Below the pieces are notes generated by a model. The model made no database searches and was not told the DNA's origin. It saw nothing but the letters and a program-made list of their open reading frames with translations. DNA of 64,000 nt from Acidobacteriota bacterium (GTDB taxonomy: Bacteria > Acidobacteriota > Thermoanaerobaculia > Multivoradales > JAHZIX01): the NCBI GenBank assembly GCA_034211275.1, contig JAXHTF010000010.1, positions 6,808 through 70,807 of the forward strand, read 5' to 3'. This document shows, in pieces, positions 27,755-35,837 of the stretch; the stretch's first letter is position 1, and the number at the start of each line of letters is the position of its first letter. Position numbers and translations under genes: made by a program.

Positions 27755-30511
27755 ATGCGACCACGATTCTTATTCTCAGCCTTGATCCTCGGCCTCGTCA
27801 CCCTCGGGTGGCCTGGGCTGGCTTTCGCGGCCTCGGTGCCCGACGCCCGGGACGATCAAGTATCCGGCAGCCCAGGGCAGAGCTTCCTCATCGATGTTCT
27901 AGCCAACGACACCGACGCCGACGGCAAGGCTTTGTATGTCGTCGACGTGACCACCGGCTGCGCCGGCACGGTGACCAACCTCGGGGACGGCACTCTGCTC
28001 TATGAATCGGTGGCGGGGGAGAGCTCCTGCCAGATCACCTACTCCGTGACCGACACTCCCAATGCCACCGGCGTGGACGATACGGCGGTGGTGGTAGTGG
28101 ATTTTCCCTTCAGCGACCCCGTCTTCCTGGTCAACGACACCCTGACGGTGCCGGCGGGGACCTCTTCCTTCGACATCGCGGACCTGACCTTGTTGGCCAA
28201 TGATCAGCCGGAGGGGGATCTGCGCATCATCTCTTTCACCCCCACCGCCGAAGGCTCCCTCGCCCGCAACGGCGCCGACGACGGCTTCGTCTACCAGCCG
28301 GCGGCCTCTTTTTGGACCGTCGGGCAGGACGGCTTCACCTACACCGCGGAGCTGATCAGCGACCCCTCCCAGACCGGCACTGGCAGCGTCACGCTGATCG
28401 CCGGGACGGCGGGCGATCCTCCGGACGCGGTGGACGACGGGCCGCTGGAGGTGAGTCCCGACGATCTGCCCTTCTACATGCCCAACGATCTGCTGCTGGA
28501 CAACGATTCTCCCGCCGGGGATATCGAGATCATCAGCGCCGGCTTGGAACAGCCGCCGGTTCACGGCAACCTTTCGGCCCACCTTCTCGGCTGGACCTAC
28601 TCGCCGACGGAGAGCTTCTGGACCGCCGGCGGTGATTCTTTCAGCTACACCATCCGCAAGCTCAGCGATCCGGAGGCCACCGACACTGCCACCGTGACCC
28701 TGGTGGCGCTGCCGGATCCGCCGGAGGCCTTCCCCGACAGCGCCGTCACCACCCGCGACCAGAGCGTGGAGATCGATCTGCTGGCCAACGATACGGGCAC
28801 GGCCATCGTGATCCACGACTTGCCCCAGTCGCCGGGCTTCGGCGCGGTGGAGAACCTGGGGGCCGGGGTGGTGCGCTACACCCCCGGCGCTGGCGAGACC
28901 GGCACCGACGGCTTCACCTACCGGATTCGCGATGCCGTCAACCAGATCTCGCCGGCCGCGGCGGTGGATGTGACGGTCCTGCCTTTCGCGGCTTTCGACG
29001 ATGCCCTGGAAGTGCCCCAGGGGTTGGAGGGGCGGCTGATTCCCGCCTTCGAGCTGCTCACCAACGACCTGCTGATCAGCGGTTCGCAGATCGTCGCCGT
29101 CACCGCTCCTACCCACGGCTCGTTGGTTCCGGCGGGGCTCGACCTGCCGGGGGCCTACGTCTACCAGCCGGCGGCGTCCTTCTGGACCGCCGGCAGCGAC
29201 AGCTTCGTCTACACCCTGGAATCCCCGAGCTATCCCGGAGTGACGGTGTCGGCGACGGTCACCCTCGACGCCGGCGCTCAGGCCGCGGTCTTCGAGGCGG
29301 ATCACGAAGAGGGGGATCTCTCCGATTGGGACACTCTCGAAGGCGGCACCGCCGCCGACGCGGCGGCGAGCCTGGTGGGGAACACCGGCTTGGGCATCAC
29401 CCTCAACGGCCATTTCCGCGACAGCTGGGCGGCGGCCACGCTGCCTCAGATGCAGAACCATCTGCACGGCCAGTGGGTCATGGACCTGGCGGCGATCAGC
29501 GGTCAGGAGGGACGCCACGGTCTCTTCGAGCTCGCCCACGGCGCCTCGCCGGTGCTCACCCTGCAGCTGGTGCCCCAATCCGTCGGCCATGGCCTGCGGC
29601 TGGTGGCCCAGGAAGACGCTGGTGAGCACACGGGACTGATGACGGTGGTCCCCGGTGGACCGCGCATCGTCGCGGTGGAGTGGTGGGCCGCTGCCGAGCC
29701 GGGAGCCGACGACGGTGGCTACCGGCTGTGGGTGGACGGCTCGCTGATCGAAGAGGTCACCAACCTGGACAACGACGAGCAGGTGGTCGACCGGGTTCGT
29801 TCCGGCGGCCTGCGAGGCTCGGAGGGGTACCTCCTGGGCGCCCTGCGCTTCGACCACGTGCAGCTGTGGCGGGGGAGCGGGAGCTTTGTTCCTCTCTTCG
29901 CCGACGGGGCGGAGAGCGGTGATCTGGCGGCCTGGAGCTCCACCGCCGCTCCCGGCAAGACCTCCATCGGAGCGACCGCCGCGGCGGCCCTGGACGGAGT
30001 CTTCGGCATCGCCACCACCTTCGAGGGCACGACCCACCGGGCTTACGTCGAGGACGACTCGCCCTCCAATGCTCAGGTGCTCTCCGCCTTCCTGCGCCTC
30101 GACCCCAATTCCATCGGCCTCGCCGCCGGCACCGGTCACGTGATTCTGCAATGCGGCCGGGACGCCACCGACCAGGCGCTGCAGGTCAAGCTCTACGCCA
30201 ACGCCGGTGGGTACCTCCTGCGGTTCCAGGCGCGGCTGGACGACGGCAGCTGGGCTCTGCTGCCCTCCGGGGGCTGGGTCTCGCTCTCCGATGCACCCCA
30301 CACGGTGCGTCTGGACTGGCGTGCCAGCTTCTTCGGAGGAGCGGACAACGGCGAAGCCCAGCTGTGGGTGGACGGTGTCTCCCAGGGCGCCGTCACCGGC
30401 CTGGCCAACGCCAGCCGTGCCGTCGACAGCTGCCGCCTAGGTGCGGTAGTGGGCGTCGATGCGAGCACTTCCGGAACCCTCTACCTGGACGACTACCGTG
30501 CGTGGCGCTGA
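27755..30511 (+). CDS. secreted protein with tandem cadherin-/Ig-like (VCBS-type) repeats and a C-terminal LamG/concanavalin-like domain
   Basis: Signal peptide MRPRFLFSALILGLVTLGWPGLAFA. AGGAGA SD. Repeated motifs (D..V.V..NDTD.DG, GFTYT) across the first 450 aa. The C-terminal ~300 aa have laminin-G-like beta-sandwich character. Confidence 0.55.
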   Translation: MRPRFLFSALILGLVTLGWPGLAFAASVPDARDDQVSGSPGQSFLIDVLANDTDADGKALYVVDVTTGCAGTVTNLGDGTLLYESVAGESSCQITYSVTDTPNATGVDDTAVVVVDFPFSDPVFLVNDTLTVPAGTSSFDIADLTLLANDQPEGDLRIISFTPTAEGSLARNGADDGFVYQPAASFWTVGQDGFTYTAELISDPSQTGTGSVTLIAGTAGDPPDAVDDGPLEVSPDDLPFYMPNDLLLDNDSPAGDIEIISAGLEQPPVHGNLSAHLLGWTYSPTESFWTAGGDSFSYTIRKLSDPEATDTATVTLVALPDPPEAFPDSAVTTRDQSVEIDLLANDTGTAIVIHDLPQSPGFGAVENLGAGVVRYTPGAGETGTDGFTYRIRDAVNQISPAAAVDVTVLPFAAFDDALEVPQGLEGRLIPAFELLTNDLLISGSQIVAVTAPTHGSLVPAGLDLPGAYVYQPAASFWTAGSDSFVYTLESPSYPGVTVSATVTLDAGAQAAVFEADHEEGDLSDWDTLEGGTAADAAASLVGNTGLGITLNGHFRDSWAAATLPQMQNHLHGQWVMDLAAISGQEGRHGLFELAHGASPVLTLQLVPQSVGHGLRLVAQEDAGEHTGLMTVVPGGPRIVAVEWWAAAEPGADDGGYRLWVDGSLIEEVTNLDNDEQVVDRVRSGGLRGSEGYLLGALRFDHVQLWRGSGSFVPLFADGAESGDLAAWSSTAAPGKTSIGATAAAALDGVFGIATTFEGTTHRAYVEDDSPSNAQVLSAFLRLDPNSIGLAAGTGHVILQCGRDATDQALQVKLYANAGGYLLRFQARLDDGSWALLPSGGWVSLSDAPHTVRLDWRASFFGGADNGEAQLWVDGVSQGAVTGLANASRAVDSCRLGAVVGVDASTSGTLYLDDYRAWR

Positions 30512-30566
30512 GCTGCGGCGAGCCAAGAAACGGGCCATGAAAGTCATACAGACAGGAGTCAAGGAT

Positions 30567-35729: not shown

Positions 35730-35837
35730 TGGGATATAGCGGCTGAGACCGGGCTCGAATCGTCGAGCGGAACGGAATCAGCCAGAACCTTGGACCGGCG
35801 GCCGGCGGAGCCCAGCGCTTCGCCGGTCGTCGGTTTT

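Follow-up and report, generated by a model that had tools for sequence, protein, structure and literature searches.

We found that a two-gene operon in this DNA, from the MAG of an uncultured Acidobacteriota bacterium, encodes a secreted, Ig/cadherin-repeat partner protein and, directly after it, an RHS protein with a foreign C-terminal tail rich in glycine zippers. On balance, we think the locus is probably a T6SS-independent, Sec-exported RHS polymorphic toxin, in which a putative Tse5-like depolarising tail, called toxic by inference, is served by a conserved adhesin-like partner. The features of the locus, in coordinates of the window (the whole 64-kb stretch of DNA that was analysed), are listed below.

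27755–30511, + strand: partner gene, encoding a 918-residue secreted protein with a signal peptide (AFA/AS), Cadherin_5/Cadherin_4, about five Big_9 repeats and then a tandem β domain.
29285–30508, + strand: C-terminal tandem β domain of the partner, 408 residues in two β-rich repeats of ~200 residues.
30567–35729, + strand: RHS/YD-shell protein gene, 1720 residues with signal peptide.
30567–30680, + strand: N-terminal Sec-type signal peptide of the RHS protein (MHWKQ...LPAAA/EF), with a basic RR, a Leu-rich hydrophobic stretch and an AxA site.
30681–35117, + strand: RHS/YD-repeat shell ending in an aspartyl autoprotease plug (Pfam RHS_repeat, TIGR03696, AF2/Foldseek).
35118–35729, + strand: polymorphic tail of 203 residues plus stop codon, starting after DPDG, with residues running to 35726.
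35792–35839, + strand: intrinsic terminator closing the partner–RHS operon, formed by a GC-rich stem of 20 bp and a run of five U after it.
35838–36905, − strand: convergent LPS heptosyltransferase gene (Glyco_transf_9, E=1.4e-32; heptosyltransferase I, E=2.4e-51).

The RHS open reading frame extends over 30459–35729 (+), and its likely start is the ATG at 30567, which has an AGGAG Shine-Dalgarno sequence 8 nt on its 5' side; the protein translated from this ATG is identical to an NCBI protein of 1720 residues. All RHS relatives carry comparable signal peptides at their N-termini, and an AF2 model places a low-confidence helix at residues 11–26, preceding the shell. A Tat signal was considered for the ARRATLL at the N-terminus and discounted because the motif is weak and is absent from the relatives. 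The shell is recognised by RHS_repeat in Pfam (E=4.3e-19) and by Rhs_assc_core TIGR03696 in NCBIfam (E=2.3e-15, residues 1433–1517). An earlier note on this DNA had described a 1.7-kaa YD-repeat protein whose RHS core ends in RYYHPMFGKFLSIDPV...RVDPDG, and this string is indeed in the translation, with the conserved core terminating at DPDG (residue 1517). The AF2 model of residues 1–1200 (pLDDT 78.8) found its best Foldseek matches in RhsA 7q97 (E=1e-32), Tse5 8cp6, Tse15, TcdB2-TccC3 and teneurins. The RHS protein is a canonical YD shell with a signal peptide. The plug residues R1474, D1487, D1514 and G1517 (...SIDPV...RVDPDG) do not vary across a family alignment of 22 sequences, and in the first motif DPVD takes the place of DPxG. 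Judged by these residues, the aspartyl-autoprotease motif at the shell end is intact. The motif has been described as DPXGX18-19DPXG, and Tse5 activity requires cleavage (PMC10684867).

The family comprises ~80 related loci, nearly all in Acidobacteriota MAGs. Relatives match the protein over ~87% of its length and then bear unrelated tails of 150–345 residues that start exactly after DPxG, which bears out the identification as an RHS polymorphic toxin. These tails include Tox-REase, Hint and DUF4157, and most family loci show a GC3 drop at the tail and a small same-strand gene within ~30 nt of the stop codon. By these features the family is a polymorphic-toxin family, in which tails appear to be swapped as low-GC3 cassettes.

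The tail of the locus, at 203 residues, is within the normal length for the family. GC3 drops at the DPDG boundary, from 0.87 in the core to 0.63 in the tail, and the codon-position GC pattern of the tail is of the coding-sequence type; the tail is a foreign, horizontally acquired cassette. Residues 1–45 of the tail make up a charged helical segment, residues 46–140 a hydrophobic Gly/Ala-rich core (KD19 peak, 1.7) with three glycine-zipper runs at 60–72, 79–95 and 103–119, and residues 141–203 a small β/α segment with an acidic end, in which AF2 predicts three strands and one helix at low confidence. The tail helices are also predicted at low confidence, with a pLDDT of 45 in the single-sequence AF2 model. 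The tail contains eight glycine-zipper motifs against 1.2 expected (p=2e-4, 20,000 composition-preserving shuffles), and its hydrophobic segment has the extended (G/A/S)xxxGxxxG pattern by which glycine-zipper toxins are recognised. The extended Gly-zipper segment of unknown family that had been noticed at first reading is therefore real.

The tail was also said to be unique, and AIGGAVGGTAGAATLLEAAAVGLVSGGILGAIKG is present in its translation; no library that we searched yielded a homolog. A word-indexed search of 5.8 billion proteins returned none, and an exhaustive phmmer search of 1.84 billion representative proteins returned the tail itself and one low-complexity 123-residue protein. Plasmids and phages (tblastn) and the tails of 74 relatives (phmmer, BLAST) also contained no homolog, those 74 tails being mostly unrelated to one another as well. 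No Pfam, NCBIfam or PADLOC family matched above threshold, and Gly-zipper_YMGG was the sole Pfam signal, below threshold (E=0.0036). Among PDB sequences, the matches were to MHC class II β chains (E≥0.09), and we dismissed them as spurious. The tail of one relative (P0035), which is also Gly-rich with a charged end and no immunity gene, was rejected as a homolog at a BLAST E of 0.71. We found no catalytic motif in the tail, and the window holds no RHS orphan ends or additional tail copies. The orphan status of the tail is to be expected, given how very rapidly helical ionophore toxins diverge (PMC11630599).

By analogy with Tse5, EsxX and CDI ionophores, the tail looks like a putative membrane-depolarising glycine-zipper toxin, and both pore formation and toxicity are suggested by that analogy. 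Its singleton status and low-confidence structure prediction count against this reading. Polymorphic-toxin tails commonly consist of an entry domain and then a toxin domain (PMC11630599), and the zipper could accordingly be a translocation module as in Tde1, with the killing part in residues 141–203, the distinct segment with the predicted strands and helix. The Tde1 glycine zipper is reportedly required for translocation into prey cells (PMC10240207). However, ~60 residues with an acidic and probably disordered end are too small for known enzymatic toxins, residues 141–203 show no motif or homolog, and the zipper is triple and extended like those of the channel-forming EsxX and TelE (PMC12744356). 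We consider an entry role for the zipper very unlikely.

The terminator begins 62 nt past the RHS stop codon, folds at -41.6 kcal/mol (z=-6.2; none of 200 shuffles as stable) and was also picked up by a consensus scan. The heptosyltransferase gene lies on the opposite strand with the 108-nt spacing reported earlier, and its GC3 of 0.88 is typical of the host genome; as a native gene outside the system, it shows where the foreign cassette stops. The earlier note had proposed a look for unannotated small ORFs in the spacer (35730–35837), and we found no credible one within it or overlapping it; in the 108 nt and in the other frames of the tail there are only frame-shadow ORFs with non-coding composition. 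Hence the adjacent downstream immunity gene that is usual for RHS polymorphic toxins is absent, as the earlier note had claimed: the RHS gene is followed only by the terminator and the convergent heptosyltransferase gene, whereas most relatives have an immunity gene there. This absence is unusual and not unique, as ~10–15% of the family loci have no adjacent immunity gene. To our knowledge, every glycine-zipper or ionophore toxin studied experimentally has a cognate immunity protein, and the lack of one at this locus counts against the depolarising-toxin reading.

The missing immunity gene also bears on whether the tail is toxic. The tail might instead serve to anchor or insert the protein in a membrane, or be a decayed cassette that has lost its immunity gene and fallen out of use; the RHS protein would then work alongside its partner in adhesion or at the cell surface. 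Glycine zippers also occur in non-toxic membrane anchors and in lipoproteins (YMGG, SlyB and OsmB families), and the sub-threshold likeness of the tail is to the YMGG-type zippers of envelope lipoproteins; the teneurin-like YD shells among the structural matches have non-toxic roles, and the lack of both a catalytic motif and a homolog fits a non-toxic tail as well. Against this, the ORF is intact, the tail has a normal length and a coding GC pattern, and the autoprotease residues that would release it are conserved. Furthermore, the family otherwise carries toxin/immunity cassettes, and a tail that is cleaved and encapsulated would be unable to anchor the shell. We therefore regard a non-toxic tail as distinctly unlikely, though less so than a zipper that serves only for entry.

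The gene upstream of the RHS gene is on the same strand at a distance of 55 nt, in agreement with the earlier reading. An AAGGAG Shine-Dalgarno sequence lies 9 nt on the 5' side of its ATG, and with the Shine-Dalgarno site of the RHS gene and the shared terminator the two genes form an operon. The earlier note had called the product an Ig/cadherin-LamG protein. The first part stood: residues ~28–510 contain one Cadherin_5/Cadherin_4 domain and about five Big_9 Ig-like repeats (Pfam Big_9, E=4.6e-42; Cadherin_5, E=2.1e-20), with a tandem-95 repeat match in NCBIfam. The LamG assignment fell, with no match in a direct Pfam scan, a PDB phmmer search, a PDB profile search or per-member Pfam scans. 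The C-terminal 408 residues themselves have no Pfam or PDB sequence match; the two halves align with each other at E=2e-16, and homologs of the domain give weak CBM_4_9, Polysacc_lyase and CBM_6 matches. The domain probably adopts a jelly-roll or CBM-like fold and is the conserved hallmark of the partner family. A word-index search with it gave only two homologs, and at 12 or more loci tblastn placed it immediately before the RHS gene (E from 1e-19 to 1e-49). The domain is not RHS-specific, as it is present without an RHS gene in the P0067 locus. The suggestion that the upstream gene is a true partner is upheld by its conserved place just before the RHS gene in the closest relatives, and this gene order is what points to a role in delivery or adhesion. 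The literature searched contained no description of the conserved Big_9/cadherin and tandem-jelly-roll partner.

We examined adjacent immunity candidates across the family. By an automated call, which is a crude ORF rule with known errors, 7 of 10 loci with the large partner had no adjacent candidate, against 6 of 55 other family loci (Fisher p=2e-4); manual inspection of the large-partner loci gave six without and four with a plausible immunity gene, so that about half of these loci have no adjacent candidate. Gly/Ala-rich tails were dropped as the reason for missing immunity, as G+A fraction and zipper count were alike in loci with and without an immunity candidate (Mann-Whitney p≈0.96). The association with the partner would suit the same machine aimed at non-kin, as a weapon for use against eukaryotes, in predation or between phyla. 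The putative glycan-binding tip of the partner would limit delivery to foreign cells, and immunity genes would therefore be dispensable in this RHS subclade. The weak CBM-type signals in the partner are consistent with such a tip, and toxins without immunity proteins tend toward use against hosts (Zhang et al., PMC3482391). However, the counts come from that error-containing rule, a plausible immunity gene is present at four of the partner loci, and absent genes could be merely unlinked. A weapon restricted to non-kin is, in our estimate, unlikely, albeit somewhat less so than a harmless tail.

No T6SS, PAAR or VgrG gene was found among the ~38 main ORFs of the window, which agrees with the earlier note. 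In the RHS protein the signal peptide leads directly into the shell, and the marks of T6SS Rhs effectors (PAAR, prePAAR TM, VgrG-binding, T6SS linkage) are absent. The sole secretion gene nearby encodes a lone T2SS/T4P-type ATPase, which counts against the proposed export of a folded ~160 kDa cocoon across the outer membrane. Signal-peptide ('T2SS') RHS toxins are a recognised class, including in Acidobacteria (PMC3482391).

For the Sec-exported depolarising toxin we propose that, after export, the shell would fold and cleave itself just past DPDG. The hydrophobic, unfolded tail would remain sealed in the cocoon, as in Tse5, and the membranes of the producer would thereby be shielded. Because the toxin would be encapsulated, no linked immunity gene would be needed during biosynthesis, and encapsulation has been argued to remove the need for cytoplasmic immunity (PMC12744356). 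The partner, a long Ig/cadherin stalk with a tandem jelly-roll tip that is probably glycan-binding, would present or target the cocoon at the surface of the target cell. Protection of kin may be encoded elsewhere, or may be unnecessary because delivery would be restricted to non-self targets. A bolder version holds that the partner and the signal-peptide RHS cocoon make up a two-component delivery system of Acidobacteriota that is independent of T6SS and has not been described before, in which the glycan-binding tip of the adhesin sets specificity and makes self-immunity dispensable, and that the tail is a new depolarising family used against non-kin bacteria or eukaryotic cells; we give this only a minor chance of being right.

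Mechanistic work on Gram-negative RHS toxins has dealt almost entirely with T6SS cargo. The locus and its ~80 Acidobacteriota relatives provide a tractable comparative set, in which a candidate delivery partner is conserved and some loci have no linked immunity gene. If the tail depolarises membranes, it would add a sequence-orphan family to the few RHS-borne membrane toxins (Tse5, Tox-WTIP) and would allow a test of encapsulation and target-restricted delivery as a substitute for immunity. If it is non-toxic, the gene is merely another annotated RHS gene in a MAG.

Among known systems, Tse5 (RhsP1, PA2684) of Pseudomonas aeruginosa shares with the locus the RHS cocoon and the two-aspartate autoprotease plug, with the catalytic aspartates 23 residues apart in Tse5 and 27 here. 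Its encapsulated, hydrophobic and non-enzymatic 149-residue C-terminal fragment, to which we liken the tail, inserts into membranes and depolarises cells (PMC9637101, PMC10684867). Tse5 is thus a pore-forming Rhs-CT, and its immunity protein, Tsi5, has two TM segments (PMC9637101). The tails of Tse5 and the locus have no sequence similarity. In Tse5 the N-terminus is PAAR-like, delivery is through VgrG4 and the H1-T6SS, and the 2-TM immunity gene comes next, whereas the locus has a Sec signal peptide, an adhesin-like partner upstream, no T6SS genes nearby and no immunity gene. The glycine-zipper depolarising toxins EsxX, TelE and TspA (T7SS), together with Tse4 (T6SS) and CdzC/CdzD, resemble the tail in the extended zipper pattern, a hydrophobic helical region and the lack of an enzymatic motif (PMC12744356). 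They differ in having their own delivery domains (LXG, T6SS cargo, T1SS) and dedicated immunity proteins, and have no detectable homology to the tail.

In overall layout, the signal-peptide RHS toxins (Zhang et al. 2012) and Gram-positive WapA combine, like the locus, a signal peptide, RHS repeats and a variable C-terminal toxin. Tox-WTIP is a pore-forming tail of two TM helices on RHS proteins that has no assigned immunity protein (PMC3482391), but both its RxxR and Wx[ST]IP motifs are missing from our tail, where the sole Trp is at position 6. TcdB2-TccC3, YenB/YenC and the teneurins share the YD-shell fold around a cleaved C-terminal toxin, and the dependence of Tc toxin BC on a separate large partner, TcA, for delivery can be likened to the large partner here. 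The Tc partner is a pentameric TcA translocator and that of the locus consists of Ig/cadherin repeats and the predicted jelly-roll; by Pfam, the RHS protein has no TcB-type SpvB, mid, β-propeller or integrin-like domain, and there is no TcA gene among the neighbours. In our models, the resemblance to Tc toxins is confined to the shell. The locus is a further case of a known type of weapon and not a new kind of system.

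The 1720-aa product of the RHS gene is a signal-peptide RHS polymorphic toxin of an already known type, and its C-terminal tail is a sequence orphan. Its architecture and the boundaries of its operon are clear.

Features of the partner–RHS locus (window coordinates)
25649..27370, minus: lone T2SS/T4P-type ATPase (T2SSE E=1e-140, plus MshEN), divergent from the partner–RHS operon
27755..30511, plus: upstream partner, 918 aa; signal peptide, Cadherin_5/Cadherin_4 domain, about five Big_9 Ig-like repeats
30459..35729, plus: RHS ORF; ATG at 30567 the most likely start, AGGAG Shine-Dalgarno 8 nt before it
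35118..35726, plus: three-part tail, 203 aa (RHS residues 1518–1720)
tail residues 1–45: charged helical segment
tail residues 46–140: hydrophobic core rich in Gly/Ala (20 Gly, 17 Ala)
tail residues 141–203: small β/α segment, acidic stretch at the end
35727–35729, plus: RHS stop codon
35792–35839: terminator hairpin, 20-bp GC-rich stem, then U5
35838..38549, minus: LPS inner-core cluster, convergent to the RHS gene; heptosyltransferase I-like gene and apparently split HldE
36933..37412, minus: cytidylyltransferase-like gene
37467..38549, minus: PfkB kinase gene

The protein read from ATG 30567 is identical to an NCBI entry annotated 'MAG: Acidobacteriota bacterium, RHS repeat-associated core domain-containing protein'. 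On inspection its N-terminus, MHWKQPLPDPSRLARRATLLLSLLLWALPVLWTLPAAA followed by EF, looks like a Sec signal peptide. Residues 12–19 (30600..30625) include ARRATLL, weakly like a twin-arginine motif; Tat export was discounted, as the resemblance is weak and the motif is not kept in relatives, which makes Sec export more likely. Pfam detects RHS repeats, and the NCBIfam Rhs-associated core (aa 1433–1517) closes with ...YMHARYYHPMFGKFLSIDPV...RVDPDG, where the earlier note, made from the sequence alone, had also ended the core. The AlphaFold2 model of aa 1–1200, built from a 28-sequence family alignment (mean pLDDT 78.8), has solved Rhs cocoons as its top Foldseek matches: RhsA (7q97, E=1e-32), together with the Advenella and Salmonella bongori Rhs cores, Tse5 (8cp6) and Tse15; TcdB2-TccC3 and teneurins rank after these. 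The shell starts without a gap after the signal peptide, and no PAAR, VgrG-binding or TcB-type domain was found in the protein.

The core of the tail contains three glycine-zipper runs (IGGAVGGTAGAA, GLVSGGILGAIKG and GAVQGAAAGSASG). With a zipper defined as (G/A/S)xxxGxxxG or GxxxGxxx(G/S/T) (PMC12744356), the whole tail has 8 motif starts against 1.2 expected (p=0.0002, 20,000 composition-preserving shuffles), bearing out the Gly-zipper character given in the earlier note, and the excess holds inside the core by itself (p=0.002). GC3 falls from 0.87 in the RHS core to 0.63 in the tail, with the step exactly at the DPDG boundary, and the codon-position GC of the tail is coding-like (position 2 lowest); together these mark the tail as a horizontally acquired cassette of foreign origin, read in the RHS frame. 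Its one Pfam match, to Gly-zipper_YMGG, is sub-threshold (E=0.0036). There was no match in NCBIfam, PADLOC, plasmid and phage collections, 74 tails from RHS relatives or, by word-indexed search, 5.8 billion proteins; PDB sequences gave spurious matches only, and exhaustive phmmer against 1.84 billion representatives returned just the RHS protein itself and one low-complexity artefact. An orphan tail is no surprise, given that identity among helical ionophore toxins drops to 20–39% even inside one family (PMC11630599).

Relatives of the full-length protein (30–38% identity over ~87% of its length, all but the tail) come almost exclusively from Acidobacteriota, Thermoanaerobaculia and 'Ca. Multivoradales' MAGs. 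DPxG closes the core in every relative, and from there continues a tail of 115–345 aa; these tails sort into many mutually unrelated groups, some with toxin or pre-toxin modules (e.g. PF15649 Tox-REase-7, PF13699, a Hint domain). In most family loci tail GC3 is far under core GC3, and a same-strand ORF of 60–220 aa with similarly low GC3 begins no more than ~30 nt after the RHS stop. Independent gene calls confirm such downstream genes for relatives P0004 (91 aa, DUF6959), P0009 (137 aa), P0005 (217 aa) and P0006 (97 aa). Judged by composition and gene order, this pairing is the classic polymorphic toxin/immunity cassette signature. One 'Candidatus Multivoradales' MAG has at least eight paralogs (loci L009, L010, L012, L017, L060, L062 and L068 on contigs CBDFLE010000005/6, plus L003), each with a different tail, and thus a large polymorphic-toxin arsenal in one genome.

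Several family tails deserve mention. Those of L024, L019 and L020 have a hydrophobic pre-toxin segment in common at the N-terminal end (GLLKKGIKVA..GGDLAATFAG...); the terminal segment of the L024 tail (ending at 13280) looks RelE/ParE-like by eye, and an immunity candidate adjoins the RHS gene in L019 and L020 and is absent in L024. The 345-aa tail of L021, a partner-associated RHS, carries a Hint/intein-like segment (CFPAGTLV...VHN), a known pre-toxin processing module, between the core and the terminal toxin. L005 (P0035) and L085 (P0034) encode RHS relatives of 2,070–2,100 aa at apparently the same locus, and in both the next gene is convergent, a LytTR response regulator in L005 and an ORF of equal length (242 aa) in L085. 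The two tails, both hydrophobic, are unrelated: one is Gly-rich, the other has a strong TM segment. Both loci lack an immunity candidate.

A minority of family loci, the window locus among them, have a convergent gene after the RHS gene (further examples are the P0008, P0034 and P0035 loci, L015, L016, L024 and L074). In the window this is the LPS heptosyltransferase gene, which lies 108 nt away with native GC3 (0.88), beyond a terminator that folds at −41.6 kcal/mol (z=−6.2; 0/200 shuffles fold as well). No ORF of at least 20 aa with coding-like composition was found in the spacer or overlapping the tail in other frames, and the window contains no second RHS fragment or additional tail copy. 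The view that no immunity gene adjoins the RHS gene is therefore upheld. A kin-protecting gene might be unlinked. Alternatively, the targets may not be kin, in line with Zhang et al., who tie toxins that lack immunity proteins to use against hosts (PMC3482391), or the tail may be non-toxic or decayed.

The last 408 aa of the partner match nothing in Pfam or PDB sequences. They consist of two tandem copies of a β-rich unit of ~200 aa (E=2e-16 for the alignment of the halves), and each copy begins DDFE.GD...W and finishes LGAV..VDAGTSG.L..DDF.SWR. We found this domain directly upstream of the RHS gene, in the same orientation, in 12 related loci (tblastn, E 1e-19 to 1e-49), each of which holds one of the closest RHS relatives. 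Partner ORFs there are 1150–2400 aa and end between −4 and +209 nt relative to where the RHS gene begins; P0003, the top RHS match, has the same arrangement at its locus. In two other close relatives the upstream gene is just a small Cadherin_5/Big_9 gene (145–152 aa). This repeated co-oriented adjacency confirms the proposed partnership as far as conserved gene order goes. The 'LamG' label was not borne out: homologs give only weak signals (CBM_4_9 in 3 of 14, best E=0.002; one Polysacc_lyase match; weak CBM_6 and faint CBM_35_2 for the P0003 partner), which suggests a carbohydrate-binding jelly-roll. Apart from this label the observations of the earlier note stand, and its interpretation is largely reasonable. 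A partner-type jelly-roll also occurs in P0067, a 611-aa protein (L087, 4798..6633) away from any RHS gene, in a region with integrase and toxin-antitoxin-like genes; this setting argues for a mobile domain that is not tied to RHS genes.

By a uniform but crude ORF rule that errs in both directions, 7/10 large-partner loci have no immunity candidate next to the RHS gene, against 6/55 others (Fisher p=2e-4). L019 does hold a plausible 124-aa gene, and the L005 'candidate' is the shadow of the convergent response-regulator gene; a manual pass over the large-partner loci gave about 6 without and 4 with a candidate. Absence of a candidate does not correlate with tail Gly/Ala content or zipper count (p≈0.96). 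The conserved partner and its link to immunity-less loci are the part most worth follow-up.

Across about 38 main window ORFs we found no T6SS, PAAR or VgrG domains, as had been noted, and no Hcp domain, and besides the T2SS/T4P-type ATPase no other secretion-system gene was recognized in the window. The window has no tRNA or Rfam features. The separate cytidylyltransferase-like and PfkB kinase genes look like a split HldE, and very large probable surface proteins cluster further downstream.

Other features of the window
7630..9381: subtilase gene, in the same part of the window as the CHAT gene
10149..13247, minus: 1032-aa protein with C-terminal CHAT (caspase-like) domain
14469..15986: TPR gene, also in this part
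50284..62324: surface-protein cluster; 972-aa PKD (minus), 718-aa FG-GAP (plus), 1639-aa with four PKD domains (plus)
62445..63761: Wzt-type ABC ATPase gene, after this cluster

R1474, D1487, D1514 and G1517 of the RHS protein are invariant in a 22-sequence alignment, and the first three match the catalytic Arg and Asp pair of the aspartyl autoprotease in Rhs proteins, whose residues are thus intact. The Tse5 motif is DPXGX19DPXG, with D1141 and D1164, and the cut falls four residues past the second Asp (PMC10684867), whereas here the catalytic Asp residues are spaced by 27 residues and the first motif is DPVD. If the protein behaves like Tse5, the shell would fold after Sec export, cleave itself just past DPDG and hold the unfolded hydrophobic tail inside. 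Because the tail would be encapsulated, cytoplasmic immunity would not be needed, an argument made for Tse5 (PMC12744356). The 149-aa CT of Tse5 inserts spontaneously into lipid layers and depolarises cells (PMC9637101, PMC10684867), and by analogy the orphan tail is probably membrane-active; its zipper-rich helices may form oligomeric ion channels, a mechanism proposed for EsxX, TelE, TspA and Tse4 (PMC12744356).
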